Shown here in pieces: positions 8,601 through 32,765 of a stretch of DNA of 64,000 nucleotides. A program made the translations under genes and the position numbers. Within the stretch, counting starts at the first letter, position 1; each line of letters starts with the position of its first letter. The stretch is from Escherichia coli (GTDB taxonomy: Bacteria; Pseudomonadota; Gammaproteobacteria; Enterobacterales; Enterobacteriaceae). The stretch is taken from the NCBI GenBank assembly GCA_009729775.1, contig GCA_009729775.1_4081.1. The stretch is one strand, 5' to 3'. The notes under the pieces were generated by a model that saw only the letters and a program-made list of their open reading frames with translations, was not told where the DNA came from and did not search any database.

Positions 8601-11600
8601 AATATGATAGTTCAACTGATAGTTATGTGACAAAATACTATTTCTGGGTACGTGATACAATTTATGTACCACCACTACATACCAGAACAAAATCATGTAC
8701 TGACATTGCTCGTATTATTAAAGATCCAACACAGCTAAACATTCCTTGGTTCGCTCCAATCAATGAAAACTCGTTTATTCTTAGTAATATGCAATTTAAA
8801 GTGAATGATGATACCAGTATTTTAACTGTTTCTTATTACATGGATAGTACTGAAGTTGTTAAACATGACCAGTATCAACTATGTAAAGAAGGTGACAGCT
8901 ATAACTTTAACCCACTAATTTGGGATTCAATGTGGAACTCACTAATTGGTCAAGAAACAACTGAATCAGGTTCTGTGATTAATTTATTATATCCAGATGT
9001 TGATAACGGTTTAGGTTCAAACAAAACTTGGTTCCAAAATGTTATAGAAGCTCGTAGAAACTTTGTAGAAAGTGCTAATAATTATTATAGGTCACAAAAC
9101 ATAACCACTAATAGTGTTGTTATGGAAGATGTGTTTAATGTTAAAACCACTGAAGTTAACCCGAATGAAGTTTCTTTCCGTGTATTGTCTTACAATAATG
9201 AATTAGTTATTGCAGTTGAAAGTGATAAATTTAAAGAAAATGACGCTGTTATTTTAAGTACTAGTGGATATCTACCAAATCCATTAACTTCTAGTGCTGT
9301 TTATTTTATTCACTTCGACGAAAATGGATATATTCAGTTAATGAATAGTCCAGCAAACGCGGGTAGTGTTGTTACTATAACGTTAGAGAACAAAGGTGAG
9401 GGACAACATAAAATGATTAAACAATCTGATTATGTTGAATCACTAGGAACTTCATTGGACATGACTCAGTACTGGTCATATGCTGATTGGTATGATGTTG
9501 GGTATGATAGTAACACGACTTATACTCAAGAGTCAAGCTTAGAAGATGCTAATACTAAAAACTACCAAGTTGGCGATATTATCAGAGTTACCGATAGTGA
9601 AAACATTTGGACATTGTATATTAAATCACAATCACGCGATTCAATTTATTGGAAAGCGATTGGTCGTGAAAACAGTACAGTTGAACTCAATGATATGCTT
9701 TACGCAGATTATAGTGTTCATAATGATAATGGTTCACTAAGCAATCGTGAAATCAACGTTCGTAAAGCACTAGCTTTACTCAAAAATTCTTTCGATTTAC
9801 ATCAAAGCGAAATTGTTTTTGATATGGTCAAATATGTACATGTTGAACAAAGTGTTGTGGATTGGGTATTTAAAACATCATATATCTATATTGTTGGTTT
9901 GGAACAATCATTAGTTCAAAACTATTCAAACGATAATTTGATTAATCAAATTGTTGAATATTTTGAAGAAGTTAAACCTTATAGAACTAAAATTCGTTCA
10001 CAAATAGAGCAAAAGACATCTGATGATGATTTAATAAAAGGTCTATGTAATGATTTAGATCCTAATGGATATATTTTCGTTGACGGTTCTTGGATCAAAA
10101 CTGAAAAAGATATTTGGGATTATGAGTACGCTCAATTTAATGAAATTACCCAAAAATGGGAACAGGTAGGTTCACTACCAAGTGATTTCGTTACACCAAA
10201 TAGAAGATTCCAAGAAATTGATATTATTATGCATTATGATAATATTCAGTGTAAACCAAATGAAGATTTGGCAAGCATAAATGAATTAGTAAGTGTTAAT
10301 AACAAATATCAATCCAATGAAAAGGATGCTGTTAGTAACTATGAATTACAACGTTATATATATTCTTTCCCAGAATATAGTGAAGAAACTTTCGATCTTC
10401 TTATTGCTTATCAAATGCAAATCTACTATCCAGAATTGGATGTAACACTAGGAACAGCATATGGCGTTAACCAGTGGTATAAAGACCATGCGGAAGATTT
10501 AGAAGCAACTGATGAATTTACTGCTACATTGGAGCGTGTTTATAAAGAATCAACGCAGAACGATATGTTTACTGACCTTAGACAATATGTTCAGTATAAC
10601 ACATTGGCAAACCGTTTGAAACTTTATAAAGATATAAGTGATGAGAAAATTCACGATGAAGTTGGTTGTGGATTTAGTGGACTTACCTATAATGACAATC
10701 CTAGTACTAGACTTCCATTAGGCTTTTCTTCTAGTAATGATTATAACTATGGATATTTTGAAATAAGCAGTGAACTGTATCAAAAATATATTTCATTAAT
10801 TAAAGATAAAAATCCTGACGCATCAGACTATGAAGTAAAAGTTAAACTTGAAGTTGAGTATGGTGTATATGTTTATCGTTATGATGAAGTAGGTGGTGAT
10901 ACCCGTTTCTATACTGATGCTATTCACGTATTAGCAGGTATGAGAGGGTTATTCGACAAAGACGCTACTGATAAGTACGAAAAAGCTGAAGAGATTCTTA
11001 GTAAGACCCCAATTGATATCTATGCAATTACAATGATTCCACGAAAATATGTTTACTTAAATGTTAACGGTGTATATCAAAGTATACCTGATGAACAAAG
11101 TATTGATGATTTCATGGAAGATTATTTTATCACAAATGGTGAAATGATTGAACTAGCTGAAATAAATCTAGATGATTTACCACTAGATCAAAATAATCCA
11201 ATGTATTCTGATTATCAATATATACTTGATAGTATTACTGAAGCTAAGTACTTCAATGATATGAATGCATTTGATAACCTAGCATTGGAATCTCAAACTT
11301 CTTCAATAAAATGGGAAGTTAAAGATGATGAAGTTGATCCTTATATTGTGGATATATCTGACATAAACCCTTCTGGGCGTGATGTTGGTCAAATTAGATT
11401 TACAGTTGATGGATATGGGTTTGACAATGTATCTCTTGTACAATTACGTGATAACAGCAGATATCAAACTGAAGGTATGGCAATTATCAATCCATATAAA
11501 CATACAGAAGCAATTGTTAGTATTCCTTCATATGCTAAGATTGAAAATGATATTAATAAAACAACATCGAAGTTTGATGAAAAATATTTCTATCGTGTGA

Positions 11601-12676
11601 GATCTATTAATAGCTTAACTGAAGCAGAAATAGTTGACAATGACCTATCTGATGGTGATAAGGTGATGATTTTCACTCCTGATGGTGAAGATTTTGTGAG
11701 ATATCAAAATCACACATGGGAAACAATCTTGCGTGTATCTAACATCAAAAACAATACAACTCCGATCCTATTCACTGTAAGAAATACAGGTAAAGAAACG
11801 ATTGAATTGATTGATGAGAGTACTGGTGCAGTTCTCCGTTATGATAATATCACTCTTGCACAACAAAATGAGCCAGTACAGCCTCTTGCATTGAACATTG
11901 TTCGTGTTAGAACATTTGCTGACCCAGAATTTGTGAAGAATGGTATCAAATTGTACGAACAAAATAGAAATTACACAATTGATGTAATTAATTATGATGT
12001 TTTCTACGATACTACTTTAAATGGTGGTAAGTACAATGACGGAATAACACCAGATGACGTTGACGTTTGGATAATCTCTAACGAAATATTTGATGTTGAT
12101 GGAATTACTATCGACAACGGTTATAACCTACCAATTACTGGTGCGGGAGTTCTTAGTGAATTAGCAAGAACTAAAATGACTGATAGTTTAGAAATCAACG
12201 TTATTGAATATGATTCAAGTGTTATTCAACCGTTTAGAAATAATGAAGGTATATGGGTTTATGGATATCCAATGGTTGACGGTATGTACATCGGTGTTGT
12301 TGGTGGCACGGTTACTAACATCACAACCATTAGTGAAGAAAATACAACCTATGTTTCTCAACCTAAATCAATAAGTCCTTATAGTATTAGAAATAATGTT
12401 TTATCCGGTTCTGCCGCGAACATGAATGATATTATATCGATTGGATATGAAAAAGTTGAAGTTAGAAATGCAAATAATTTACTCCGTGGAGTAATGTATA
12501 GTGCAGAACATGATTTTAAACTTAATACTACATATTCATTCAATGGAATTAATTTAGGTAATTATGATATGTTAAAACGTTACACACAAAATAGTTACAC
12601 TATAGATCTTTCAGTATACACTGATAGTCTACAAGTTAGTGGTAATGATATTAAAAATATATTATTAGTTAAGTAA
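2675..12676 (+). CDS. giant virion-associated protein (3333 aa in ORF track)
   Basis: Uninterrupted 10-kb ORF. The likely true start is the ATG at 2705 (MTNNFKF...), 7 nt after a GGAG motif. Its position between structural genes suggests a tail/baseplate or fibre component; no motif recognised. Confidence 0.85.
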   Translation: MNERIIWSPKMTNNFKFQPTQMAEAVQKKLFIKRLPEWMQGLEDIQKVSDDVIQQWFNPAENELVDGYIGDMGSPAAAGNIFLHESTVARQLYQLSTAYVSKNDDSTIRSIQFYDDLVGYMNHYGALTDNESRLFNGKFYAWTPAINPNKMNNFSSYLWDTKNSYNITSPDYIVMERGALNGNTWSLQNFWYTLGETLEDGSILTEELMQDSRFIRARAPIIEYNKNIELINYGTKFRGTVDLFSDIIKPEDIVQKDINSGIRIDGIIPQDGMRILFTSIGNNGENNRIYNVYVKKMQDGTRVYGLALDPEEETESRPSGEPQDGDVVLITKGNEYGNSSMYWNGSLWVRAQSKTSVNVFPKFQLYDRNGIKLDNSTTYPSSNFKGSELFGFKINYNYATDSVYGYNIELGDYNYYIYENFLQSQRYTYDHLGKEVEIDGLYYYNIIDENNEMNLQTDWVRSEEYSKQFVKQTPQVQRTDMYRVFSTVYDMEVFKEPVDGMYAYVIEVDRTYQYYKADRETYLDWHPITGDGVQIVKYDHTFELAQKVLDNDSDIIEVVVDGVDVSKYTKNVSKGQVQSITLDSTVELDEDSVIQIRTYSSTVTPDKELGAYEVPINLQNNPYNSNIIYINQGDYTLHFQDIIQKNITRGSSDDFNDYEERLAKGLVNNGVGTKIIQNEASMLPLMAHTANEDIDLFEATMFMQSEYFRFINKFNTQMLRMYDENPSDFLQNSAANIVDAILTTINMGRDSSFPFYYDNVGSTSGFIRAFIPPTPQFLGILQAYVPEKATFLTAGSKPSCYNISHTGIISKAYRVINGVDKMDDVVYELENRIFNSIDNKFKDVDYVPVLNSDDLFPTPYFTKTEYSAEEKQTLLLRGYINFTATNGISNSTHDYDPNNWRTWNYTGTYYVVNGQSTEIPARGSWRAIYTDQYGTYRPATHPWEMFGFTQRPTWWNQEYEPTAVQVGERDSDVVYVYEALVMNEQGDLVPSGLWDIDGTIGDSSTGTILFGDRRGQYDKYKRFGVQPFKITKTGNKTSSGIDICVVEYIAPEILGLVSGSLNHRAEPWTYGDMGDMEFTYMNTTLFAYDQMMLLYKAKPAQFANYFWDTRNDNLKEVFTDGSQFLYGDTRKRINFDKNTVVHGENSTRTIGYQMFVSDHLMYQNKNITTKYGDVVRSSYINVGHKIGGFTKADQLTFNAKSFGLISQENQTIGLVRSNNIRDEQMSAIKITWNGSAYQIDGYDLVGAKFKYKLPVKNGRKVTLKLENRNVVHYNEWKSEASIEYGKVFNSYQEVYTFICGYGEYLKEHGWIFEDVNDSGAQQDWNTIAKDFVIWSQNSLVTGEFISCTPSAANAKFGADFGSVQSITQNNGGVWSLLDDNNQGIRQYEIETSRIGNIFTVRTLESNKRIALIRLSLCSYEHAVIFDDKTIFGDYIYQPTYGSIQELIKMYGYITGSWTGRLQAPGFIILEAGTLPSFEKLVSDFQHYYDSETPVSDVQLQELSNHLIGYQSRDYLQRMISSDVSRVDFYKGFIHDKGTNQVLERVLRVSKSYDTDEYKALQEWAFKIGTYGNIDGKKNLQFKLINDQFKQQPQMVSFDVNATSNGNGNHIVYFGEQGKDPRWITRPNGKFSFPMRSGRSENIQLPDIGPVTLDEVSYTTKDFSTAYNDRITYTNGKGENPESVWMFKDGNGLWNIFELVDTNVQMVSITPIENTDVYAEQFCKVTLTDNVPLEDGDYYYFVDETNFMPDTLTVESQYYTAGSDPKVMVVPFDTSIDIEFTDPDTRPRLYRYVSRFASTDERQAYIDKKYSFKAPQSTLFDRPTTYDERTNITELYLNVYDPINGVIPGAAMQNVTYTSPVDPAQYNSNGELIQAWGADKVGQVWWNTSTAFYLDYTRAIYDADGNVDIDATNEYKRYNWGRLLPHSTIDVLEWVCSPVEPYNWDKYCKDVAKKNKNNTMYLPSGTALEDNYSTFLEYDSSTDSYVTKYYFWVRDTIYVPPLHTRTKSCTDIARIIKDPTQLNIPWFAPINENSFILSNMQFKVNDDTSILTVSYYMDSTEVVKHDQYQLCKEGDSYNFNPLIWDSMWNSLIGQETTESGSVINLLYPDVDNGLGSNKTWFQNVIEARRNFVESANNYYRSQNITTNSVVMEDVFNVKTTEVNPNEVSFRVLSYNNELVIAVESDKFKENDAVILSTSGYLPNPLTSSAVYFIHFDENGYIQLMNSPANAGSVVTITLENKGEGQHKMIKQSDYVESLGTSLDMTQYWSYADWYDVGYDSNTTYTQESSLEDANTKNYQVGDIIRVTDSENIWTLYIKSQSRDSIYWKAIGRENSTVELNDMLYADYSVHNDNGSLSNREINVRKALALLKNSFDLHQSEIVFDMVKYVHVEQSVVDWVFKTSYIYIVGLEQSLVQNYSNDNLINQIVEYFEEVKPYRTKIRSQIEQKTSDDDLIKGLCNDLDPNGYIFVDGSWIKTEKDIWDYEYAQFNEITQKWEQVGSLPSDFVTPNRRFQEIDIIMHYDNIQCKPNEDLASINELVSVNNKYQSNEKDAVSNYELQRYIYSFPEYSEETFDLLIAYQMQIYYPELDVTLGTAYGVNQWYKDHAEDLEATDEFTATLERVYKESTQNDMFTDLRQYVQYNTLANRLKLYKDISDEKIHDEVGCGFSGLTYNDNPSTRLPLGFSSSNDYNYGYFEISSELYQKYISLIKDKNPDASDYEVKVKLEVEYGVYVYRYDEVGGDTRFYTDAIHVLAGMRGLFDKDATDKYEKAEEILSKTPIDIYAITMIPRKYVYLNVNGVYQSIPDEQSIDDFMEDYFITNGEMIELAEINLDDLPLDQNNPMYSDYQYILDSITEAKYFNDMNAFDNLALESQTSSIKWEVKDDEVDPYIVDISDINPSGRDVGQIRFTVDGYGFDNVSLVQLRDNSRYQTEGMAIINPYKHTEAIVSIPSYAKIENDINKTTSKFDEKYFYRVRSINSLTEAEIVDNDLSDGDKVMIFTPDGEDFVRYQNHTWETILRVSNIKNNTTPILFTVRNTGKETIELIDESTGAVLRYDNITLAQQNEPVQPLALNIVRVRTFADPEFVKNGIKLYEQNRNYTIDVINYDVFYDTTLNGGKYNDGITPDDVDVWIISNEIFDVDGITIDNGYNLPITGAGVLSELARTKMTDSLEINVIEYDSSVIQPFRNNEGIWVYGYPMVDGMYIGVVGGTVTNITTISEENTTYVSQPKSISPYSIRNNVLSGSAANMNDIISIGYEKVEVRNANNLLRGVMYSAEHDFKLNTTYSFNGINLGNYDMLKRYTQNSYTIDLSVYTDSLQVSGNDIKNILLVK

Positions 12677-21920: not shown

Positions 21921-24062
21921 ATGGCAGTATTTTCTAATTTTGAAGGAACTATGCAGCCCAAATTCATATTGGGGAAAAAAGGTGCTTCAATAAATTTTAT
22001 CAATGATTCAGTTTCTATAAAAGATTATCTAGGAGAACAGTTCCTACCACTGAAGGTAGGAACTTCATCTGACCCTAATTCAGCAGTTAACGTAAAATAT
22101 CTTGAAGATAACCCTAATGCATTATTTGGTGTTGTACCCCCTACCGATGATGTAGGAAAGAACAATAATACGTATTTTCAAATTGATGAAGATGGTATTG
22201 TTGATATTTTTGCAAAAAGTAATGGTACATGGGTAAAATCATTATACATTAATAAAAAAGTTCTATCCAGTAAAAATGGTGGCGATTTCATCGGACTTAT
22301 TACTGGAGGTACAGTTCAACAGGCCCAGTTTTATATAACACCAGAAGAATTTGGTGCTAAAGGTGATGGCGAAACTGATGACACTGCTGCTGTAAATTTA
22401 TGTGCTGCTTATGCTAAAGAAAATAAAATCCAAATTCAGGCTGGTGGTAATTACCGTATCAAAACTGCAATATACCTAGAAGATGTAACTTGGTTTGGGG
22501 GAACTATTACTGGTAACGGTGGTACTATGGTATCTGTTATTAATTCCCAAATACAATTTGCAACACTTACTGGATGTTATTTAAAATTCTTCGGTGGCGA
22601 TGGTAAGTTTTATTTTAATAAATTTATAAACATCACAAGTACTGCTGCATTTTTAATGCAAGGTATGACACAACCAGGAACAATAGATTTTTGCTTTAAT
22701 GAAATGACCCAATGTAAGTATGGTGTTCTTCAACAAGGTACTGGTGAGAAAATGAAGGTTGGTAGATATTCATATAACCATATTCATGATATCTATGGTG
22801 ATGCAATTGAACTAAACGTAATTAACTCACATTATCCTGATGGTTTTGTGATTGAAGGAAACGTAATTGAAAACGTTGATGGTTCTAACGCTCCAATCCC
22901 ACTTTCAAACTGGGGCATTGGTATTGGCGTTGCTGGTTCTGGTCCTTATGGTTTAGATGCACCAGATACACAATATGTCAGAAACTTTGTTATTAAAAAT
23001 AACAGACTATATAATGTTAGACAATGTATACACGTTGAATTAGGAATGGACTTTAAAATACTTAATAATGAAGTTTATCCATCATCTTTAGTTTCTGTTG
23101 GTACTGGATTAACCACTGCTGGTGTTATAACTTATGGTTCGAAAGAATTCATTATTGATGGGTTGACTGGTCATTTGCTTAATGATCCTTCTATCACAAA
23201 TAGAATGGTTTCAATAAACTGGGGTGTAACTTCTGGTCGTTTTGCTGGACCACCTAGAAACTTTAAAATTTCTAATCTCTATATTCCAGAGTCTTCTATA
23301 CTTGTTTATACTTCCGGTTCTGATAATTGGTTAAATAATACAGAATTGAGCAATATCACTTGTTCTAAAATCCTTTGGCGTGGTTTGCCATCATCATCTA
23401 AATTTAGTGATATTAGAACTAAAGAATTAGATGTAATTGGTCAACACCTCTCTACCGAAGGCGAAGGTGGTGGTATCTATACTCGCTCTAAATATACTTA
23501 TACTAATTGGACTAACTGTGTTGTTCAAGATGATTGTAATGTTTCAAAATATAGTTTTTCTAAAATGTATGTAGACAGAATAGACCAATCATCTAATAAC
23601 TTTAAAGTTACAACTGCAATCGATGGTACAGGTCACCGTGGCCCAGTACTGATACCTGTAGTTGAGCAATATTATATTCCATACGATACTTTTCCTGGGG
23701 GACGCTATTTCTCTGAAGGCACGATTATTCATAAACAATCGGGTGGAAAATATATTGTAACTGTTGGTGGTTCTTTTTTCGGAAAATATGACACAATTAG
23801 ACAAACGGTAGCAGGACAAACATACATAGAAGCATTGGGTGTGTCATGGGGTGAAAACCAATATGCAAAAGCTGCTGGTACTGAGATCATTATATCCGGT
23901 GCTGGTGAAAATGGTGGTGATTTGAGAACGTATATAACTCGTGCAGTGTATGTTGTAAACAACGTATATAGAATTGATATTGCAGATCCTATCATAACAG
24001 CAACTGCCGCTGGTGCAGCATTAAAAGCTGCCCAACCCGTAACTTACATAACCCTACCATAA
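21921..24062 (+). CDS. tailspike with pectate-lyase-type beta-helix (putative polysaccharide depolymerase)
   Basis: Motif PEEFGAKGDGETDDTAAVNLCAAYA, typical of the pectate lyase 3 / tailspike beta-helix start; AAGGGAGG SD. The N-terminal ~45 aa are paralogous to the next gene. Confidence 0.75.
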   Translation: MAVFSNFEGTMQPKFILGKKGASINFINDSVSIKDYLGEQFLPLKVGTSSDPNSAVNVKYLEDNPNALFGVVPPTDDVGKNNNTYFQIDEDGIVDIFAKSNGTWVKSLYINKKVLSSKNGGDFIGLITGGTVQQAQFYITPEEFGAKGDGETDDTAAVNLCAAYAKENKIQIQAGGNYRIKTAIYLEDVTWFGGTITGNGGTMVSVINSQIQFATLTGCYLKFFGGDGKFYFNKFINITSTAAFLMQGMTQPGTIDFCFNEMTQCKYGVLQQGTGEKMKVGRYSYNHIHDIYGDAIELNVINSHYPDGFVIEGNVIENVDGSNAPIPLSNWGIGIGVAGSGPYGLDAPDTQYVRNFVIKNNRLYNVRQCIHVELGMDFKILNNEVYPSSLVSVGTGLTTAGVITYGSKEFIIDGLTGHLLNDPSITNRMVSINWGVTSGRFAGPPRNFKISNLYIPESSILVYTSGSDNWLNNTELSNITCSKILWRGLPSSSKFSDIRTKELDVIGQHLSTEGEGGGIYTRSKYTYTNWTNCVVQDDCNVSKYSFSKMYVDRIDQSSNNFKVTTAIDGTGHRGPVLIPVVEQYYIPYDTFPGGRYFSEGTIIHKQSGGKYIVTVGGSFFGKYDTIRQTVAGQTYIEALGVSWGENQYAKAAGTEIIISGAGENGGDLRTYITRAVYVVNNVYRIDIADPIITATAAGAALKAAQPVTYITLP

Positions 24063-24078
24063 AGGAGATTATATTAAA

Positions 24079-24975
24079 ATGGCAGTTTTTTCTAATTTAG
24101 AAGGAACCATGAAGAAGTCCTTCATTCTTGGGAAGAATGGTGCACAGATTACCACAAATGGTAGTGTTGTGCAAATTCAAAACTACTCAGGGACACAACT
24201 TCTTCCAATTTCAGCAGGTGAACCAACTGCAAACACACACTTGGTTACATTGGGATATTTAAACGCACACAGTGGTGGTGGTAGTTCTGGTATCTTACGT
24301 GGAACAACAGCACCATCCGATTCGATCGGTCTAGATGGTGACGTTTACTTTTTGGTTGATAGTACTAATGTTCTTCAAATTTATATTAAAGACCTTGGTA
24401 TTTGGAAACCATTTAAAGGTAGCTCACCTGGGACTGATAGCTCATATGTAACTACTGAAATAGTTCCTGTTTCTGCATTTACATTAGTACCAGATACTAC
24501 TGATCATTATACTTACACACTACCAGAATCAGTTCATGGTAGAGGTTCTGATATTATGATCCAACTACAAGGTGACCCAGGTAATGTTGCATTGGAATCA
24601 GTATTCCAAACCACAGTAACAGTTAGTGGTATTGGGGATATAACAATTGATGTGATTGGTCAAATCACAGATTATGCAAGTGTTAAAGTAAACATTATAG
24701 GAGCAACAACAATGACAGTACCTTATAGTAAATTGGTAAACCAAGCAGATTGGGTTTCTAGTGCTGGTGATTTTACAATCACTATTCCTGCATCTGAACA
24801 CAATCAAACACCAGATAATTTGTATATTTCAATTTATGCAAATAAAACACCTGGGAGTGTTGCGTCATCTCCATTTGAATTGGTAGTGACTGATACACAA
24901 ATTAGTAGTACTGGTGATGTAATCTTCACTTCTGATATTTCTTTCAGTGGTAAGATTGTCATCTCTGGTAAGTAA
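24079..24975 (+). CDS. tail fibre/spike protein sharing the N-terminal anchor domain with the depolymerase
   Basis: MAVFSNLEGTMKKSFILGKNG... is near-identical to the N-terminus of the 21921 gene; AAGGAGA SD. Confidence 0.7.
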   Translation: MAVFSNLEGTMKKSFILGKNGAQITTNGSVVQIQNYSGTQLLPISAGEPTANTHLVTLGYLNAHSGGGSSGILRGTTAPSDSIGLDGDVYFLVDSTNVLQIYIKDLGIWKPFKGSSPGTDSSYVTTEIVPVSAFTLVPDTTDHYTYTLPESVHGRGSDIMIQLQGDPGNVALESVFQTTVTVSGIGDITIDVIGQITDYASVKVNIIGATTMTVPYSKLVNQADWVSSAGDFTITIPASEHNQTPDNLYISIYANKTPGSVASSPFELVVTDTQISSTGDVIFTSDISFSGKIVISGK

Positions 24976-24982
24976 AAAATTA

Positions 24983-25016
24983 ACCAGACTTGTTCTAAAT
25001 AAGTCTGGTTTTTTAT
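24983..25016 (+). terminator. intrinsic terminator
   Basis: AACCAGACTT ... AAGTCTGGTT stem followed by T6. Confidence 0.55.
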
Positions 25017-25112
25017 TATATTTGCTTTTGTCAAATAACATATTAATTGTTGGATAACAGCATAATAAAACTAAATATATACATATTAACAAGGTTATAA
25101 TGGAGGGTATAA

Positions 25113-28100
25113 ATGTACTCAATAAAAACTGACTTAGATATTACTGGTGCTGGTACGGTTGGTAAGGATCTTTTAGTCAAAGGAAATGCTGTTTTCAACA
25201 ATAACCTAACTGTAAATGGTACTGTAACTTTTGCAAATGCAACTTTTACTGCCATTGAATCATCAACTGCCAATATTACATCTACTTTAGATGTAGGTGG
25301 CAAAGCAACACTTTCTGGTGGTCTTGGTGTTGAGGGTAATACTACAATCGGTAGTGCAGTGGTCGGGTCTGATACAGCAACAATTAATTCAAACGCTACC
25401 TTTAACGGTACTGTATCAGTTGGTTCTGATTTTACACAAACTGCTGGTACAACCACTCTACAAGCAACTAAAGTTAAAAACTTAGAAGTTGCTGAAACAA
25501 CAGCATTTAAAGGTAATATTACTGCTGATGTTGGGACTACTGCTGCATTTGATAAAGTTACTGCTAATACCGCAGAAATTACTAATGTAAGTACAACAGA
25601 TATTAGTAGTACTGGTACTGCTACATTTAAAGATGTGACAATTAGTGGTACACTTGGTGGTGAGTTTAATCTATCTGACTTAAATGCAGTAACATTGAAC
25701 GTTACTGGTGCATCTAACCAACAAGGTGCAGTAACTTTCGGTGCTAACGTAACTGGTATTAACAGTACTGCTACTTTTAAAGACATTCGTATTGGTTCTA
25801 ACTCTGAATCACAAACCTTCAGATTAAGCTTCCCTTACACTGCTCCTGGTAAACGCCCAACTGTTATTCTACAAAACGAAATTCAGTCCGAGCTAATGTC
25901 ACCTGCAAACTTGACAGTATTGACCTCTGCTTCTTTTGGTAATGCGTCATTATCTTCTTATGGTATTACTGGTAATGGTCTAAACAAATTAGATTATCTA
26001 ACAGTTTCTGGTAACAATACACAATCACCAGACACACCACTATTAGAAGTTCAAAAAGGCAAAACTAAAGTTGCGGACTTTGAAGTAACCGGAACTGCAA
26101 CTATTCCAAATATCGAAAGTACTGGTACTGCTAATTTTAATAACATTAATGTTTCTGGTCTTCTTGGTGGAACGTTCCAACTAGACGATATCAATGCAGT
26201 ATCTTTGAACGTTACTGGTGTAACTTCATTAGTTGGTGGTGTTACTCTTGGTTCTAATATTACTGGTTATAACAGTACTGCATCCTTTAAAGCTATCAGC
26301 TTAGGTCAAAATAGTCAAGATGCGGCAGTGAAACTAGGTTTTGGATATACTGCACCAGGTCAACGCCCAACAGTTATTCTACCTAACGAAGTTCAATCAG
26401 AAGTCGTTTCTCCTTCTACATTGAACGTTCTTAAAACAGCAACTTTCGGTAACGCTTCTCTTTCCACTTATGGTATTACTGGTAACGGTCTAAACAAACT
26501 AGATTACCTAACTATTACTGGTAACGAAACACAAGCTCCAGGTACACCATTCCTACAAGTTGGTGGTAAAGCAATTCTTAATGATGTTGAATTTACTGGA
26601 ACAGTAACTGGACTAACTGTTGATGTTAGTGGTCAGGATCTAACACCTAATTCTGTTGTCGCGGCAGCAAATATTAAAGGTGCAACACTTGAAAGTACTG
26701 GTAACACTACCGTGGGTGCTAAACTAACTGTTACTGGTGATATTGCTGGTACAACTGCAACTCTTTCTGGTGCATTATCCGCTGGTTCAGTAAGTTCTGG
26801 TTCTATTACTGGTACAACTTCTGTATCTGCACCAACAATTAGTGCATCTACTGAAGTAACGGCTCCTACTATCACTGCGAGTGGAACTGTAAGTGGACAA
26901 ACAATTAACGGTACTAATATTAGTGCAACAACTCTGACTGCACCAACTATTAGTGGTAATACTAACTTCACAGAAAATGTTGATATTACTGGAAATCTAA
27001 CAGTTACTGGTACAGTAACCCCAGGTACAATTGATTTGAGTACTACTGATGTTAGTGCGAAATCAATCACTACTACCGCTGGTGCAAATATTGGTGGAGA
27101 TCTTGTGGTTCAAGGTTCTTTTGATTTATCAGCAGCAGACATTAACGTTAAATCACTAACTTCTTCTGGTATTGTTAAAAGTAATGACCTTGTTAATGCT
27201 AACGTACTTCCTGTACTTAATAGTACTACCATAACGGCAACTACTGTTAATGCTGATGATATAACTGTTACCGGATCTGCTAATTTGGGTACAATTTACT
27301 CAAGCTCATCTGTTCTAGTTGGGTCAACTTTAACTGTAACTGGTGAAACTACAACTGCATCGTTGGTTACCCCAACCATTTCAAATGCAAGTGGTGTCAC
27401 TATTTCCAATAATACAAATGTAACTGGTGACCTAACCGTTACTGGTGCAGTTATTCCAGGCTCTATCGATCTAGCAACAACTGATGTTAATGCTAAATCC
27501 ATTACTACTACTTCTGGTGCAACTATTGGTGGTAACCTAACTGTTAATGGTACAGTAGATCTTACTACTGCTGATGTTACTGTCAAATCTTTAACTAGTT
27601 CTGGTGCAATTGTTAGTAATGAATCTACAATTAGTAGTGTTCTACCTAAACTTCAAAGTACTGATGCAACTATTGCAACCCTTGGTTCAACAACTGCAAA
27701 TATTACTAATTTGAATGTTACTGGTGCATCTACCGTAGCTGACGTAACTTCTTCAGGTAAAGTTAAAGCAGTTTCTGTAGAAACCCCAACAATTAGTAAC
27801 GTTGATGGTGTATCTATTTCCAATAATACATCTATTACTGGTGACCTAACAGTTTCTGGTACAGTAACACCAGGTGCAATTGATTTGAGCACAACTGATG
27901 TAAGTGCAAAATCCATTACTACTACCGCTGGAGCAAATATTGGTGGAGATCTTGTTGTTTCTGGTACAGTTGATTTAAGTGGTGCTGATGTATCTGTTAA
28001 ATCTCTAACAAGTACTGGTATTATTACAGTTAGTAGTGCAGAAGGTATCAACGTTCTACCTAAAGTTCAAAGTACTGAAGTTACAGTGTCTGCTCTAAAT

Positions 28101-30992
28101 GCAACAAATGCAGTAGTTTCTGGTGATGTTTCAGCAGCAACAGCTTCAATCTCAGGTGCAATTACTGGTGGGTCAGCAACACTATCTGGTGTTGGAACTG
28201 CTCTAAATGTAACTAATAACGCAACTGTTGGTGGTGTACTTACTGTTGGTTCTATTACTTCAGCGGCAGAAAATGTATCCATTACTAAAAATACCGCGAT
28301 TACTGGTAATTTAGCAGTATCTGGAACACTAACTGCGGGTGTTATTGATCTTAGCACAACTGATGTGTCTGTGAAGACATTAACTTCGCTAGGTGATGCA
28401 ACCGTTCAAGGTAACTTAACTGTTGATGGTTCTATTGACCTAAGTTCTGCAAACATCGTCGGTGTAACACTAGAAAGTACTGGCTCTACCACTGTAGGTA
28501 CTGATTTGATTCTAACTACAGGTAACATTACAGGTAGTCCATCTATTTCTGGTAACTTGGGTGTAACTGGAACCACAACGTTAACTGGTGCAACTACAGT
28601 TTCAAATACATTGAATACTGCTGGTAAACTAACAGTTAATACTGGTGGTATTCAAGTAGTTGGTGGTGGTATCCAAGTTGATGCAGGAACTATTACCGCA
28701 CCAAGTGCTAATATTTCTGGTGACTCTACCCTTAATAGTGCAACTGTAACTACTACCCTTGGTGTTACTGGTGCAGCTAGTATGAATGGTGGCCTTACTG
28801 CATCTACCCTAGATGTAACTGGTGACAGTACTGTACAAAAACTAACTGTTAAGGGTGCATTTATTCCTGAAGGTGGTTTGGACCTATCTGGTGCTGATCT
28901 TAACGTGAATAGCGTATCTGCTGCAACCACATTAAGTGTTACTGGTGCTAGTACTCTAACTGGTGGCGTTTCCACTTCAACTGTTACTGCATCCGGTAAG
29001 GTAACCGCACAAGAATTAAGTACTGGTACATTGGCAGTAACCACAAATGGAACAGTTGGTGGTACTTTAGATGTAACTGGAAAGGCAACAGTCGGTTCTC
29101 TTGATTCAGGTGCAATATCTGCAACTTCTGGTACATTTAGTACTACACTAGGTGTAACTGGTGTAGCAACATTTGGTAACAATGTTAATATTACTGGCAC
29201 GTTAACTCCAGGTGCATTGGATTTATCTAGTACTGATGTAGATGCTAACAGTCTTTCTGTTGCAACAACCCTACATTCAAACGGCAATGCAACAATTGGT
29301 GGTACACTAGGTGTAACAGGTGCAGCAACTGCTCCATCAATAGCTCTTAATGGTGAAGGAACTGCATTAGCAGTTACTAACAATGCAACAATTGGTGGCA
29401 CACTAGGTGTAACTGGAAAGGCAACAGTCGGTTCACTAGATTCAGGTGCGGTATCTGCAACTTCTGGTACATTTAGTACTACAATAGATGTAACAGGTGT
29501 AGCAACCTTTGGGAATAATGTTAACATTACTGGTACATTAACTCCAGGTGCATTGGATTTATCTAGTACTGATGTTGTTGCAAACAGTCTTTCTGTTGCA
29601 ACCACACTACATTCAGATGGTAATGCAACAATTGGTGGTACATTAGGTGTAACTGGTGCAGCAACTGCTCCATCAATCACTCTTAATGGTGAAGGAACTG
29701 CATTAGCAGTTACTAACAATGCAACAATTGGTGGTACACTAGGTGTAACTGGTGCAGCAACTTTAGGTTCACTAACAACTTCTGGTGCAGTGAAAACTGG
29801 TTCTAATGTTATTATTGGTACTAAGATCGGTGAACAACCAGAAACAGTTCAGATTTTCCCTAACACTTACATCGCAGGTTCCTTGCGTGTAGACGGTGGT
29901 ATCAACGCTGATATCGATGTTAGTGGTCAAACGATCGAACCATATGCGGTTGTTGCTGCTGATACTATTAGTGCAGCAGGTAATATCACATCTGGTGCAG
30001 AATTGATTTCTAAATCTGCAACTATTGGTGATGTTGGTTCACAAAACAACAACTTAACCATCAATGGTAACGTAGTTAACAATGGTAACTTTACAGTAAC
30101 GGGTGTTCTAAACGCAACGCTAAACCAAGCTAACTCTGATGTGGCTGTTAAATCTTTAACTGCAACTAACAGTGTTGCTGCTGGTACTAGTATTACCGCA
30201 GGAACAAGCATTACTGCAACTGGTTTACTAAAAGGTAACACTCTTGAAGTAACCACTACTGGTTCATTCGGTGGTGCAGTTACTATGTCAAGTGGTGCGA
30301 ATATCACAGGAACTGTTGGTATTACTTCTGGTAACCTAACTGTCGGTGGTGATATTTCTGCAACTGGTACTGCTACCCTTGCTGCTACTTCTGTGACTAC
30401 AATTACTACTTCTGGTGCTGCTACTCTTGCTAGTGCATCTGTAACTGGTGCAGCAACCGTAGGTGGTACTTTAACTGTTACTGGTTTAATGACTGCAAAT
30501 GGTAGTGTTGTTCTAGGTGACGCTGCTGCTGATACATTAACTGTCAATGCAACATCTTCTTTCAAAGAAAATGCAGTATTTGATAAAGATGTAACTGTAA
30601 CTGGTCAATTAACAACTACTAATGCTGACCTAACTACTACAACAGTAACTACTAAAAAATATGATGTTATTCCTAATCAAGTAACTTCTTCTGTTATCGC
30701 ACCAACTGGTACTTGGACCCCAGACGGTACTAGCAACGTATACTTTATCACTCTAGATCAAGATACAACTCTAGCACCAATCACTGGTCTAATCGGGGGT
30801 GGTAAAGCATCTTCAGTATACATTTATGTTAAACAAGATGCAACAGGTAATAGAAACTTTACTACTGATGGTACTTATGCGGTTGTTGATGGTACACTGA
30901 ACAAAACTGCAAACTCTGTAACTATCTACCAAGTCATTTATGACGGTGTGAGTCCAGTAACAGATATGTTTATTGCACAACGTACTGCTTAA
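25113..30992 (+). CDS. giant repetitive tail fibre protein (1959 aa, Thr/Gly/Val/Ser-rich beta-repeat)
   Basis: GGAGGG SD. Multiple internal repeat families, including four ~65-aa modules (xTGDLTVTG...IDLSTTDVSAKSITTT...) and a near-identical tandem 112-aa duplication. Confidence 0.85.
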   Translation: MYSIKTDLDITGAGTVGKDLLVKGNAVFNNNLTVNGTVTFANATFTAIESSTANITSTLDVGGKATLSGGLGVEGNTTIGSAVVGSDTATINSNATFNGTVSVGSDFTQTAGTTTLQATKVKNLEVAETTAFKGNITADVGTTAAFDKVTANTAEITNVSTTDISSTGTATFKDVTISGTLGGEFNLSDLNAVTLNVTGASNQQGAVTFGANVTGINSTATFKDIRIGSNSESQTFRLSFPYTAPGKRPTVILQNEIQSELMSPANLTVLTSASFGNASLSSYGITGNGLNKLDYLTVSGNNTQSPDTPLLEVQKGKTKVADFEVTGTATIPNIESTGTANFNNINVSGLLGGTFQLDDINAVSLNVTGVTSLVGGVTLGSNITGYNSTASFKAISLGQNSQDAAVKLGFGYTAPGQRPTVILPNEVQSEVVSPSTLNVLKTATFGNASLSTYGITGNGLNKLDYLTITGNETQAPGTPFLQVGGKAILNDVEFTGTVTGLTVDVSGQDLTPNSVVAAANIKGATLESTGNTTVGAKLTVTGDIAGTTATLSGALSAGSVSSGSITGTTSVSAPTISASTEVTAPTITASGTVSGQTINGTNISATTLTAPTISGNTNFTENVDITGNLTVTGTVTPGTIDLSTTDVSAKSITTTAGANIGGDLVVQGSFDLSAADINVKSLTSSGIVKSNDLVNANVLPVLNSTTITATTVNADDITVTGSANLGTIYSSSSVLVGSTLTVTGETTTASLVTPTISNASGVTISNNTNVTGDLTVTGAVIPGSIDLATTDVNAKSITTTSGATIGGNLTVNGTVDLTTADVTVKSLTSSGAIVSNESTISSVLPKLQSTDATIATLGSTTANITNLNVTGASTVADVTSSGKVKAVSVETPTISNVDGVSISNNTSITGDLTVSGTVTPGAIDLSTTDVSAKSITTTAGANIGGDLVVSGTVDLSGADVSVKSLTSTGIITVSSAEGINVLPKVQSTEVTVSALNATNAVVSGDVSAATASISGAITGGSATLSGVGTALNVTNNATVGGVLTVGSITSAAENVSITKNTAITGNLAVSGTLTAGVIDLSTTDVSVKTLTSLGDATVQGNLTVDGSIDLSSANIVGVTLESTGSTTVGTDLILTTGNITGSPSISGNLGVTGTTTLTGATTVSNTLNTAGKLTVNTGGIQVVGGGIQVDAGTITAPSANISGDSTLNSATVTTTLGVTGAASMNGGLTASTLDVTGDSTVQKLTVKGAFIPEGGLDLSGADLNVNSVSAATTLSVTGASTLTGGVSTSTVTASGKVTAQELSTGTLAVTTNGTVGGTLDVTGKATVGSLDSGAISATSGTFSTTLGVTGVATFGNNVNITGTLTPGALDLSSTDVDANSLSVATTLHSNGNATIGGTLGVTGAATAPSIALNGEGTALAVTNNATIGGTLGVTGKATVGSLDSGAVSATSGTFSTTIDVTGVATFGNNVNITGTLTPGALDLSSTDVVANSLSVATTLHSDGNATIGGTLGVTGAATAPSITLNGEGTALAVTNNATIGGTLGVTGAATLGSLTTSGAVKTGSNVIIGTKIGEQPETVQIFPNTYIAGSLRVDGGINADIDVSGQTIEPYAVVAADTISAAGNITSGAELISKSATIGDVGSQNNNLTINGNVVNNGNFTVTGVLNATLNQANSDVAVKSLTATNSVAAGTSITAGTSITATGLLKGNTLEVTTTGSFGGAVTMSSGANITGTVGITSGNLTVGGDISATGTATLAATSVTTITTSGAATLASASVTGAATVGGTLTVTGLMTANGSVVLGDAAADTLTVNATSSFKENAVFDKDVTVTGQLTTTNADLTTTTVTTKKYDVIPNQVTSSVIAPTGTWTPDGTSNVYFITLDQDTTLAPITGLIGGGKASSVYIYVKQDATGNRNFTTDGTYAVVDGTLNKTANSVTIYQVIYDGVSPVTDMFIAQRTA
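29076..29747 (+). repeat. near-identical tandem duplication (2 x 336 bp) inside the fibre gene
   Basis: Two consecutive in-frame 112-aa units (KATVGSLDSGA...NATIGGTLGVTG) differing at only a few positions; period 336 bp. Confidence 0.8.
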
Positions 30993-31055
30993 TAATTATA
31001 ATAATAAAGGTGTCACTCTTTTGGGTGACACCATCATAACAAGTGAGGTAGTTAT

Positions 31056-31835
31056 ATGTTCACATATGTGAAAGGAAATTCAAAAGAAAATTATGAATTG
31101 GGTAGCATTATTTCTAACCCAATTGGTGTAAAAGGATTGAAAGAACGTCCAGGTGCTACACCAGAAGATCCACAAACCTATCGTTATCTTTATAGTGATA
31201 TTAGAACTCTTTATGGTATTTCAAGTAAAGATGGTTCTCCAGTGGAACCTAATGATGCTGTTAGAAAAGAAGAAGGTTTTTGGTGGTTAGTGTATAAAAA
31301 TATTGGCAATGTTAATGCTATTGAACAACCATTGGAGTTTATTAAGTTAAAAGATGATAATCAACCAGTTGTTGAATTTATTGAAGAAGCTACATCAGAG
31401 TATAAAGCACTAACAGTACTGAAAACATACCATTACGTTGATATGAATATTACTGATGTGAAATATGATTTAAAATCCAGAACTGTAGCAGAACGTGGTG
31501 AACGTATTAATCGTGGTTATTTGTTTAAAGAACAACGTTATAGTACTGATCTAGCTGGTCGTCAAATGTTACTTAACTATTATACTCAAGTAACTTCTGG
31601 TGCTGAAACTGTATCTATATTTCTCGATGATGCAATAGTTAAACTATCTGCTGCTGAAATGACACAACTATATACTGAAGCATTTGCTATGGTAGAACAG
31701 TTGTTTGCTGAATGTGATCGTCAGTGTGCTGCAATTGATGCAGTTAATGATTTAGATCCTGATGCAATTTATAAAGCACAACAAGCTGCAACTTGGGTAT
31801 ATGAAGGTATTGATATTCCTGAACGTATACGTTAA
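31056..31835 (+). CDS. hypothetical protein (possible fibre assembly/chaperone by position)
   Basis: 259 aa immediately downstream of the giant fibre gene; GAGGT SD. No motif recognised. Confidence 0.65.
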   Translation: MFTYVKGNSKENYELGSIISNPIGVKGLKERPGATPEDPQTYRYLYSDIRTLYGISSKDGSPVEPNDAVRKEEGFWWLVYKNIGNVNAIEQPLEFIKLKDDNQPVVEFIEEATSEYKALTVLKTYHYVDMNITDVKYDLKSRTVAERGERINRGYLFKEQRYSTDLAGRQMLLNYYTQVTSGAETVSIFLDDAIVKLSAAEMTQLYTEAFAMVEQLFAECDRQCAAIDAVNDLDPDAIYKAQQAATWVYEGIDIPERIR

Positions 31836-31843
31836 ATAATAAA

Positions 31844-31867
31844 GGTCAACACTAGTTGGCCTTTTTT
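31844..31867 (+). terminator. intrinsic terminator
   Basis: GGTCAAC-acta-GTTGGCC (one G-U wobble) followed by T6. Confidence 0.5.
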
Positions 31868-31889
31868 GCTTCATTATAAGGAAAAATAT

Positions 31890-32765
31890 ATGTATAATAT
31901 AAGAACAGATATTATTGTAAATGGTGATATCAGTTATGACGGCGAACTAATAGGCAAAATACCAGTACCAGATATTAGTACAAAAAATAAAAATATTTTA
32001 ATTCATGAAAATGATGGTTTATATGTTCCAGATAACACTATTAATTATCAAGGTGGAACTGGTATATCAATAACCTCTAATTTAATATCAACAAAAATAA
32101 GCACAACTCCCGGCAATAGTTTAACATCTGATAGTACTGGATTATTTGTACCTAGTAGTTCATCTTCATATACTGCTGGTAATGGAATATCGATTAACAG
32201 TAATGTGATTTCATCTAAAATAAGTAATACATCTGGTAATATATTAACATCTGATAGTACTGGGCTGTTTGTTAATGGCACTAATACTACTAATTTAGTT
32301 CGTAGAAAAAGAGAACTATATTATTCAAACTTAAATATACAATTTACTGATGGTATTGAACAAAATTTAATTCAAATACTCAAGTCATTGACACCAACAA
32401 GCGGAACACTAGATACATTCTTTAACACTACTAGTAATAAACTAAATGTTTATAATTTTAACTCATCACTCAACTTTAAATTGAATATATATGGAACATG
32501 GACGACAAGTTCATCTAATATGAGTTTTGCTATAAATTTTACAAATACACAATTTAATAATATTAATCAAGTTAGAACACCAACTATTACTGTTGATACT
32601 ATATCATTTAATACATTTTTAAGTGTTGATGAAAATGGTAACCTAGTAACTAATGGAACACCTATTACGTTAATGTCACATGGTGGCAAGTTTACAGTTA
32701 CTAATTTATTATTAATTGCTGAGCAAATCGTTCCACCTTCAATGAGTGGGGTTTCTGTAGTTTAA
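31890..32765 (+). CDS. fibre-like protein with tandem internal repeats
   Basis: ORF track start is TTG 31866; the ATG at 31890 follows AAGGA. Repeated unit G(T/N)GISI(T/N)SN(L/V)IS(T/S)KIS(T/N)T(P/S)GN...LTSDSTGLFV occurs twice. Confidence 0.7.
   Translation: MYNIRTDIIVNGDISYDGELIGKIPVPDISTKNKNILIHENDGLYVPDNTINYQGGTGISITSNLISTKISTTPGNSLTSDSTGLFVPSSSSSYTAGNGISINSNVISSKISNTSGNILTSDSTGLFVNGTNTTNLVRRKRELYYSNLNIQFTDGIEQNLIQILKSLTPTSGTLDTFFNTTSNKLNVYNFNSSLNFKLNIYGTWTTSSSNMSFAINFTNTQFNNINQVRTPTITVDTISFNTFLSVDENGNLVTNGTPITLMSHGGKFTVTNLLLIAEQIVPPSMSGVSVV

Follow-up and report, generated by a model that had tools for sequence, protein, structure and literature searches.

Gene content of the fibre locus

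One large open reading frame dominates the region (Table 1). The window, meaning the whole 64-kb stretch of DNA that was analysed, had been predicted to encode a 1959-aa fibre here; the frame is intact, and its product matches the PHROG 4549 "tail fiber protein" profile (E 3.8e-231, 770.7 bits, nine matched stretches). The Shine-Dalgarno sequence lies downstream of an AT-rich intergenic region and of the hairpin and T-run terminator of the previous gene (24981-25015). The hairpin directly 3' of the fibre stop codon carries no T-run; it may terminate transcription weakly or stabilise the RNA. The protein specified by the knob-tipped fibre gene downstream starts MYNIRTDI, resembling the MYSIKTDL of the large fibre. 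No paralogues of fibre segments were found elsewhere in the window at E < 1e-3. ORFs of 132-355 aa that run antisense within the gene were considered as real genes and rejected, none having a PHROG match. They are consistent with the low number of stop codons in one antisense frame (30, compared to 136 and 245 in the remaining frames), a by-product of ACT/GGT/GCA/GTT codon usage.

Table 1. Features of the fibre gene and its surroundings (aa, residues of the 1959-aa protein)
Feature	Position	Strand	Remarks	Basis
Shine-Dalgarno sequence	25102-25107	+	GGAGGG, 5 nt 5' of ATG	direct sequence reading
Tail-fibre ORF, complete	25113-30992	+	1959 aa; ATG 25113, stop 30990-30992	
N-terminal conserved region	25113-25598	+	aa 1-162, starts MYSIKTDL	23-homologue alignment
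Module A1	25599-26108	+	aa 163-332	diagonal score 511; hmmsearch 331 bits
Module A2	26109-26618	+	aa 333-502	diagonal scan, hmmsearch
Module B1	26952-27386	+	aa 614-758, first of four	repeat family D4, diagonal scan, hmmsearch
18-bp (6-aa) stretch	27006-27023	+	without counterpart in 121Q and phAPEC6 alleles	MAFFT gene alignment
Module B2	27387-27800	+	aa 759-896	repeat scan, diagonal scan, hmmsearch
Module B3	27801-28265	+	aa 897-1051	repeat scan, diagonal scan, hmmsearch
Module B4	28266-28682	+	aa 1052-1190, most diverged copy	repeat scan, diagonal scan, hmmsearch
Module C, copy A	29046-29381	+	aa 1312-1423	TRF period 336
Module C, copy B	29382-29717	+	aa 1424-1535	TRF period 336
Distal shaft segment	29913-30512	+	most private part of the allele	windowed identity table
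C-terminal tip domain and stop codon	30657-30992	+	aa ~1849-1959	phmmer, tblastn, pLDDT
GC-rich hairpin	31009-31032	+	GGTGTCAC...GTGACACC, directly 3' of fibre stop	direct sequence reading
DUF4376 protein gene	31056-31835		downstream of fibre gene	
Knob-tipped fibre gene	31890-32765		downstream of fibre gene; Sf6-type knob	

Based on sequence homology, the ORF is the large tail-fibre protein, already annotated, of a 121Q/PBECO4-type (Asteriusvirus) jumbo coliphage. Orthologues with 94-98% protein identity are gp571 of 121Q, Gp256 of phAPEC6, AXC36801 of UB and gp_304 of CRJP21, and DNA identity to the genes of relatives is 95-97%. More than 20 Asteriusvirus genomes annotate the orthologue as a tail fibre and share one gene order, in which genes for a depolymerase-like protein and a 298-aa structural protein precede it and a DUF4376 gene follows. 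All four named orthologues occupy the same locus and have the same termini and the same three module families, and UB AXC36801 has an identical 1959-aa architecture. Gp256 of phAPEC6 (180 kDa) was found in virions by ESI-MS/MS with 15 peptides and 15.9% coverage (PMC7247149), and W70_107, a Septuagintavirus fibre listed as phrog_4549, is abundant in virions (PMC11370258). Full-length homologues occur in the Rak2-like jumbo phages Klebsiella fENko-Kae01 (WNV47359), Salmonella 7t3, GAP32, CBB and Serratia BF; these are far more diverged (33-40% identical, with 57-89% of the query aligned) and have other lengths and module counts. No Pfam or NCBIfam family matched the fibre protein at its curated cut-off. 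Bactofilin (PF04519), at 18.4 bits against a gathering threshold of 27.9, was set aside as a compositional, beta-helix-like resemblance only.

Protein architecture and relation to other fibres

The invariant positions in 23 homologues include M1, Y2, S3, I4, K5, D7, L8 and G12, and the N-terminal ~160 residues are presumably the virion attachment end of the fibre. At the opposite end the tip domain is kept in the fibres of phiTE and, by tblastn matches over aa 1848-1958, of CR3, CR8, POP15, W70, A7_1 and Av-05, and shows many invariant columns across the 23 homologues; receptor contact would be made by this C-terminal tip of ~110 aa. The shaft is very long, all-beta and rich in Thr, Gly, Ser, Val and Ala. 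Its hydrophobic autocorrelation peaks at 6, 12 and 18 residues, indicating a strand period of ~6 residues, of which the 18-bp stretch listed in Table 1 represents one unit.

AlphaFold2 monomers were modelled from a 23-sequence alignment with a mean pLDDT of 50.8 for aa 760-1959 and 50.2 for aa 1-800, and their use is limited to secondary structure and to the ~90 residues at the C-terminus. Most of these last 90 residues reached a pLDDT of ~78-85 and are the sole confidently modelled part. The models are strand-only, but at a pLDDT of ~50; the ~6-residue hydrophobic period is compatible with a beta-helical shaft. A Foldseek search of the PDB with the poor AlphaFold2 model gave no match at E < 0.1; its top rows, a phage capsid spike and a tailspike C-terminus (E 0.12-0.25), were too weak to be retained.

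The nearest solved relative is the tail fibre of Pectobacterium phage phiTE (PDB 9CUY/9MJN chain g, 793 aa), which most probably corresponds to the "LTF" described by Hodgkinson-Bean et al. 2025. Homology to 9cuy_g was detected at E 7.6e-30 with the single sequence and 3.6e-72 with a profile; phmmer aligned aa 1775-1956 to residues 612-792 of the chain, and module A2 is homologous to residues ~205-445. The two proteins share the 170-aa module, the C-terminal tip and PHROG 4549, whereas the window protein is 2.5 times as long and has two further families of modules, B and C. The long fibre of phiTE is described as a trimer, for which a long, flexible and highly extended beta-helix is predicted; only N-terminal residues were modelled in the map, the regions homologous to the window protein being outside the resolved part (PMC11972413). 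By homology, the window protein would likewise have a trimeric beta-helical shaft. No evidence of an N-terminal alpha-helical "rip-cord" bundle of the phiTE type was obtained for it, its N-terminus not being homologous: the 9cuy_g alignments start at chain residue 180-205, and the N-terminus is predicted by the AlphaFold2 monomer to be strand or coil, with no helices. In phiTE the alpha-helical bundle of the LTF docks on the wedge and sheath-initiator proteins (PMC11972413).

In virions of phAPEC6 and CBB the baseplate fibres are six in number and short (28.6 nm in CBB), as opposed to hairs of 119 +/- 10 nm, and neither paper assigns the hairs a gene (PMC7247149 for phAPEC6). The window protein could be imagined as the ~120-nm hair or whisker found on the tail sheath and capsid of these hairy Rak2-like phages. 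Scaling from the 512 A of the phiTE fibre (a predicted value, with a 793-aa chain assumed) gives ~120-126 nm for 1841-1959 aa, CBB encodes a homologue, and phAPEC6 Gp256 is a virion protein (PMC7247149). This is nevertheless unlikely: the length scaling is rough and built on a predicted model, the gene sits in a tail-fibre/tailspike cluster, a homologue is also encoded by GAP32, for which no hairs are reported, and the closest characterised homologue, the phiTE fibre, is attached to the baseplate (PMC11972413). In addition, Gp256 had a mass-spectrometric coverage of 15.9% (PMC7247149), which is modest if the protein had to be present in many dozens of copies.

Less probable still is a proximal subunit resembling gp34 of T4, with the distal receptor-binding half encoded downstream. 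The records of UB, 121Q, SP27 and ph0011 do carry the label "long tail fiber proximal subunit", which is widespread without support from homology, and small structural or fibre-like genes (DUF4376 protein, knob-tipped fibre) do follow the gene. However, no Pfam or NCBIfam match to gp34 was obtained. The PDB contains T4 gp34 fragments, yet a profile of the 23 homologues searched against all PDB sequences returned the phiTE fibre alone at E <= 0.1, and the single-sequence search likewise gave no other fibre or protein. The protein also has its own conserved C-terminal tip, homologous to the C-termini of the phiTE, CR8 and W70 fibres, and the knob gene is missing from 121Q-type phages. Neither the DUF4376 protein nor the Sf6-type knob fibre matches the gp35-37 families. 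Gp34 and gp37 of T4 and the mosaic fibre genes of T-even phages give long trimeric fibres with repeated motifs and undergo recombination between repeats and alleles. The window protein is similar to gp34 and gp37 in this general working but shows no detectable sequence homology to them, and, unlike the T4 long fibre, it is a single polypeptide from attachment end to tip.

Repeat modules and length alleles

Internal repeats were scored by a BLOSUM62 diagonal scan; blastp of the protein against itself gave the self-match only, contained HSPs being culled. The three repeat families scored 616, 511 and 183-379, far above chance as judged from 30 composition-preserving shuffles (mean 77, maximum 93). 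This self-comparison, suggested along with the original prediction, confirmed all three families, and the repeat coordinates given there were right to within about 30-100 bp. A1 and A2 are tandem modules at a 510-bp offset with 63% amino acid and ~75% nucleotide identity; a pair of modules had been correctly foreseen, but their size is 170 rather than ~160 aa and their span 25599-26618. The four tandem B modules (26952-28682) are 138-155 aa in length, are spaced by 435, 414 and 465 bp and share 45-57% amino acid identity. Their number and approximate spacing of ~430 bp had been recognized, whereas the units of ~65 aa described earlier are the conserved cores of these larger modules.

TRF reported a period of 336 bp at 29046-29752, with 2.1 copies and 91% matches, the last ~35 bp forming a partial third unit. 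The 2 x 336-bp tandem duplication is therefore real, but the description "near-identical" was wrong, since copies A and B in the window differ at 9.2% of nucleotides and 8% of amino acids. The codon changes comprise 21 synonymous and 9 non-synonymous ones, and the longest exact run common to both copies is 55 nt. Both copies are read as being under purifying selection. Among the window, UB and CRJP21, orthologous distances (A-A and B-B) are 0.3-2.7%, the A copies of UB and CRJP21 differing by 2.4-2.7% from that of the window, while the A-B distance within each is 8-9.5%. Small distances between orthologous copies, against a constant distance between A and B, indicate that the duplication predates the divergence of the window, UB and CRJP21 and was not followed by homogenisation; the view of it as recent is thus contradicted. 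Five other independently sequenced phages keep both copies as orthologues (copy distances were measured in UB and CRJP21), so a recent origin and an assembly artefact are both excluded. The repeat had also been proposed as a source of assembly collapse, which is unlikely given the 55-nt maximum exact run and the fact that UB, PBECO4, CRJP21, JP4 and SD-6_S16 match the query ungapped, in one piece, through both units. The 336-bp duplication is an old event, and the allele lineage of PBECO4, UB and CRJP21 is fixed for it. A simple A/B crossover deletion of a window-like allele was considered as the origin of the single-copy allele and rejected, because the A/B-informative sites of the latter are interleaved.

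Two 336-bp units are present in the window, UB, PBECO4, CRJP21, JP4 and SD-6_S16. One unit was found in 11 records, equal to 10 phages (121Q as two records), the one-unit phages being 121Q, phAPEC6, SP27, G17, Sharanji, SHEFM2K, slurp01, ELP-22, ECO103 4-12-1, EC22.5-2 and E9.1. The one-unit protein, read in 121Q and phAPEC6, is 1841 aa in length, these alleles lacking one 336-bp unit and the 18-bp stretch relative to the window. CRJP21 gp_304 has a third 170-aa module (+510 bp; 6390-bp gene, 2129 aa) compared to two in the window, and the match of JP4 to the query, its gene itself being unread, spans the same extent as that of CRJP21. Comparison of copy number among relatives, likewise suggested with the original prediction, thus revealed one-module differences of 336 and 510 bp. 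Allele lengths among the sister phages are 1827, 1834, 1841, 1959 and 2129 aa. Homologues further away are 1175 to 2120 aa long, with other module counts; the search that located them was limited to 8000 candidates sharing words with the query, and the close GenBank orthologues were not among its results. A precomputed domain, PF26209, accompanies that search. A scan of IMG/VR with the duplicated region returned 121Q and four weak partial matches, and nothing else.

In the module C segment the one-copy alleles are ~10-12% diverged from the two-copy ones, and all five other phages with a 96-97% identical allele of this segment are two-copy. Since copy number differs only between lineages ~10-12% apart, the predicted length variation holds as whole-module differences between allele lineages, with no sign of a fast hotspot. 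A recent, near-identical duplication acting as an active copy-number hotspot, perhaps as an artefact or the cause of one, is very improbable: a tandem 2.1-copy repeat is present, relatives hold one or two copies, and an exact run of 55 nt is in principle long enough for homologous recombination, but the differences between the copies lie mostly at synonymous sites, the distances reveal no turnover or gene conversion since the UB/CRJP21 divergence, the single-copy allele mixes A and B states, and the five other two-copy phages match without gaps over both units.

The window allele is a patchwork, with segments closest to different relatives in a windowed identity table covering six of them, and is a mosaic in which recombination has joined 121Q-like segments to others like those of CRJP21 and UB. 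Its distal shaft segment (Table 1) shows ~90-93% identity to the closest of the six relatives and 77-86% to ph0011 and UE-S1.

Shaft evolution and a possible part in host finding

Taken as a whole, the ORF is most plausibly an Asteriusvirus long tail fibre with a module-duplicated shaft, length alleles differing by whole modules, an old 336-bp event and a mosaic history (probability roughly 0.85). Against this, among other points, only short baseplate fibres are seen in TEM of phAPEC6 and CBB, which fits a 1959-aa baseplate fibre badly, and the N-terminus is unlike the alpha-helical bundle by which the long fibre of phiTE is attached. The shaft of such a long tail fibre would have grown via tandem duplication of super-modules, namely 2 x 170 aa, 4 x ~140 aa and 2 x 112 aa. 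Unequal homologous recombination could then add or remove whole modules while leaving the fibre unbroken, such changes being tolerated because every module would be complete in itself and made of the same repetitive fold. Module gain and loss over evolutionary time may have produced the length alleles of the sister phages. Each module would change the length by very roughly 7 nm (112 aa) or 11 nm (170 aa), as scaled from the predicted 512 A of the phiTE long fibre on the assumption that this fibre is the 793-aa chain.

Fibre genes that are modular and mosaic are familiar from phage textbooks. The present gene is already known: it is annotated, an orthologue has been confirmed by mass spectrometry, and over 20 sequenced relatives carry it. 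For the most part the finding is ordinary. For typing Asteriusvirus fibre alleles, the polymorphisms of 336 and 510 bp offer clean module markers.

PHROG 4549 fibres are encoded by flagellum-dependent phages of several kinds: phiTE and CR8 (both Certrevirus), fENko-Kae01 among the jumbo phages, and SHEFM2K, an Asteriusvirus with an orthologue that shares 94% identity with the window protein. Flagellotropism of SHEFM2K is attributed to Alsharif et al. (2025, Microbiol Res) as that work is cited in PMC11895373, and fENko-Kae01 is flagellum-specific, with WNV47359 as its only annotated long fibre. Tentatively, PHROG 4549 fibres might be the flagellum-engaging organelle of flagellum-dependent myophages, in which case the number of modules, in steps of 112 and 170 aa, would tune the reach or flexibility of a long filament capturing the rotating flagellum. 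The co-occurrence with flagellum dependence and a predicted length that fits the hairs lead to two hypotheses on how giant coliphages may find their hosts.

Identity and surroundings of the fibre gene

The window derives from a jumbo coliphage of Asteriusvirus type, in the 121Q/PBECO4/phAPEC6 group. Based on megablast, the fibre gene matched 33 phage records, 31 of which were Escherichia jumbo phages, at 95-97% identity over most or all of its length. The gene is of a known, annotated kind, and its architecture is the same as that in phage UB. It is preceded by the hairpin and T-run terminator of the upstream gene and followed by a GC-rich hairpin; its product contains 19% Thr, 12% Gly, 11% Ser, 10% Val and 10% Ala.

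The protein matched PHROG 4549 "tail fiber protein" (E 3.8e-231), while no Pfam family reached threshold (bactofilin, 18 bits versus a cut-off of 27.9) and no NCBIfam match was found. Mass spectrometry of purified virions detected its phAPEC6 orthologue, Gp256 (180 kDa), which is listed among three putative tail-fibre proteins (PMC7247149). Among solved structures the sole relative was PDB 9CUY/9MJN chain g, which is annotated "putative tail fiber protein" and has 793 aa (Pectobacterium phage phiTE). A single-sequence search gave E 7.6e-30 and a profile of 23 sequences 3.6e-72; the aligned parts are the 170-aa module and, at the C-terminal tip, aa 1775-1956 with residues 612-792. By its sequence character chain g is most probably the phiTE long tail fibre, described as a trimer, the C-terminal part of which was predicted, not resolved, as a highly extended flexible beta-helix (512 A in total; PMC11972413). 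AlphaFold2 monomer models of our fibre were poor (mean pLDDT 50.8 and 50.2), with beta-strands, no regular helix and moderate confidence only in the last ~90 residues, and Foldseek of these models against the PDB returned nothing at E < 0.1. None of the searches with the fibre protein matched T4 gp34, which leaves the common GenBank label "long tail fiber proximal subunit" without support.

The products of two consecutive structural genes upstream share the N-terminus MAVFSN(F/L)EGTM..FILGK.GA, which has the look of a shared adaptor through which one scaffold carries different receptor-binding proteins. A giant ORF lies further upstream in the same structural region; gp245 (382 kDa) in the phAPEC6 mass spectrometry table is of similar size and is a candidate counterpart (PMC7247149). 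The DUF4376 protein keeps its place in every relative examined, and its annotation in 121Q is "structural protein"; a role as fibre partner or as assembly factor is possible. Five antisense ORFs of 132-355 aa in the fibre gene were rejected as genes, since none had a PHROG match. Fibre codon usage is dominated by ACT, GGT, GCA and GTT, which leaves one antisense frame with only 30 stops in 1959 codons; the other two have 136 and 245.

Features of the fibre region and segments of the mosaic fibre allele
Feature	Position	Strand	Remarks
Giant ORF	2675-12676	+	3333 aa
Structural gene 1	21921-24062	+	pectate-lyase-like "colanic acid-degrading" depolymerase; PHROG 6117, E 3e-264
Structural gene 2	24079-24975	+	
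Ribosome-binding site	25102-25107	+	GGAGGG; fibre gene
Fibre ORF	25113-30992	+	ATG 25113, stop 30990-30992; 1959 aa
DUF4376 protein	31056-31835	+	259 aa; E 3.8e-9; directly downstream of fibre
Knob fibre	31866-32765	+	likely true start ATG 31890; Sf6-type tail-needle-knob domain, PF16532, E 2.9e-28
Antisense ORFs	25043-25786, 26633-27070, 27653-28051, 28652-29719, 29927-30565	-	artefacts
Mosaic segment	25113-26900	+	99-100% identical to 121Q and phAPEC6
Mosaic segment	26700-28400	+	99-100% identical to CRJP21
Mosaic segment	28400-29900	+	96-98% to UB and CRJP21; only 88-92% to 121Q
Mosaic segment	29913-30512	+	distal shaft just before tip domain; about 90-93% to closest of six relatives compared; 77-86% to ph0011, UE-S1
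Mosaic segment	30513-30992	+	121Q-like once more

The small knob-tipped fibre has 291 aa in the window versus 455 aa in UB and CRJP21, the deficit of 164 aa being about four ~41-aa serial repeats. In ELP-22 the matching region is another about 350 bp longer, and the gene is absent in 121Q and phAPEC6. Repeat-number polymorphism is clearer here than in the large fibre gene. The N-terminus of the knob fibre, MYNIRTDIIVNG, resembles that of the large fibre, MYSIKTDLDITG, and this resemblance suggests a common attachment motif.

Distribution of the fibre family

Using tblastn, full-length homologues were identified in GAP32, CBB, Serratia BF, Erwinia and Yersinia jumbo phages, Salmonella 7t3, PHA46 and Klebsiella fENko-Kae01, and the C-terminal tip only in Certrevirus (CR3, CR8, POP15), Septuagintavirus (W70, A7_1, A73) and Av-05. 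The PHROG 4549 fibre W70_107 is common to Certrevirus and Septuagintavirus and absent from rV5 and PVP-SE1 (PMC11370258). Several phages with homologues depend on the flagellum: phiTE, CR8, unable to plate on a delta-flgK host (PMC11659082), Certrevirus in general (PMC11370258), fENko-Kae01, whose sole annotated long fibre is the homologue (PMC11218385), and the Asteriusvirus SHEFM2K, as cited in PMC11895373. The phiTE authors prefer the short fibre for first flagellum contact. A link between PHROG 4549-type fibres and flagellum dependence is a correlation, possible but unproven.

Phage phAPEC6 (PMC7247149) and CBB have only short baseplate fibres, yet carry ~119-nm "hairs" to which no gene has been assigned. 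If the phiTE prediction is scaled to 1841-1959 aa, the fibre would match these hairs in length, and this protein is their possible but unproven source.

Repeat families and age of the 336-bp duplication

Self-repeats were scored by a BLOSUM62 diagonal scan of the fibre protein against 30 shuffles of the same protein (maximum score 93, mean 77). The highest score, 616, was at an offset of 112 aa (aa 1284-1450 versus 1396-1562), followed by 511 at 170 aa (aa 163-313 versus 333-483, 63% identity). Four modules (aa 614-1190) are related to one another by scores of 183-379, at offsets of 138-155 aa and at sums of these (283, 293, 438). In the DNA, a repeat search placed copies 510 bp apart in family D14, 435/414/465 bp apart in D4 and 336 bp apart in D7, and Tandem Repeats Finder reported 29046-29752 (period 336, 2.1 copies, 91% matches). 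The repeats are real, and the coordinates of the original prediction were good. Its four "~65-aa modules" exist as a related set, 65 aa being the conserved cores only of contiguous modules of about 140 aa. Beneath these super-modules hydrophobic residues recur with a spacing of 6, 12 and 18 positions.

The two 336-bp copies, described earlier as near-identical and recent, are neither. Divergence between unit A (29046-29381) and unit B (29382-29717) is 9.2% in nucleotides and 8% in amino acids, with a longest in-register exact run of 55 nt; 21 of the 30 changed codons are synonymous, and both copies are retained under purifying selection. Both are also present in UB and CRJP21. Among these two phages and the window, A-A and B-B distances are 0.3-2.7%, whereas A-B distances within each are 8-9.5%; the duplication is therefore older than the split of the three. 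The same distances gave no sign of gene conversion between the units. The single unit of 121Q and phAPEC6 differs from A or B by 10-12%, slightly above the A-B distance. That the single-copy allele arose from a window-like one by simple, recent crossover deletion was rejected, because A and B states are interleaved in it at the 39 sites separating the units.

Module number and mosaicism among relatives

Alignment of phAPEC6 and 121Q to the fibre gene left exactly two gaps, of 336 bp in the duplicated region and 18 bp (27006-27023). Megablast of 28800-30000 sorted the relatives by unit number: two units in five phages (PBECO4, CRJP21, UB, JP4 and SD-6_S16; ungapped span about 1190-1201 bp) and one in SP27, ELP-22, slurp01, phAPEC6, SHEFM2K, G17, Sharanji and ECO103 4-12-1 (336 bp shorter where the query matched whole). 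The match was partial only in 121Q, EC22.5-2 and E9.1; the 121Q gene alignment gives a single unit, and the other two show the same megablast pattern. The CRJP21 gene (6390 bp) has one additional 510-bp module of the 170-aa family, and JP4, judged by megablast span only, matches over the same part of the query as CRJP21. The fibre is 1834 aa in ph0011 and 1827 aa in UE-S1. Profile searches of 22 remoter homologues, taken from genomes and metagenomes and 1175-2120 aa long, found two or three 170-aa modules along with varying numbers of modules like the ~140-aa (B) and 112-aa (C) ones.

In the PBECO4 record (KC295538.1) the fibre gene crosses the ends of the linear record (343191-348098 plus the record start) and its annotation is split over three "hypothetical protein" CDSs. 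SD-6_S16 is similar, its match reaching the record end with two CDSs. Both point to frameshift errors in these assemblies or to records that begin at an arbitrary place, not to biology.

The proposed recombinational length variation is true on an evolutionary scale, as whole-module differences among relatives and a mosaic allele. A fast hotspot with an actively unstable repeat is not supported, the units being old and without gene conversion between them, nor is assembly collapse. The window allele is a mosaic of segments resembling different relatives (see table). The flanks of the distal shaft segment 29913-30512 have 97-100% identity to at least one relative; the segment itself possibly derives from an allele lineage not yet sampled, and it could bear on host range.
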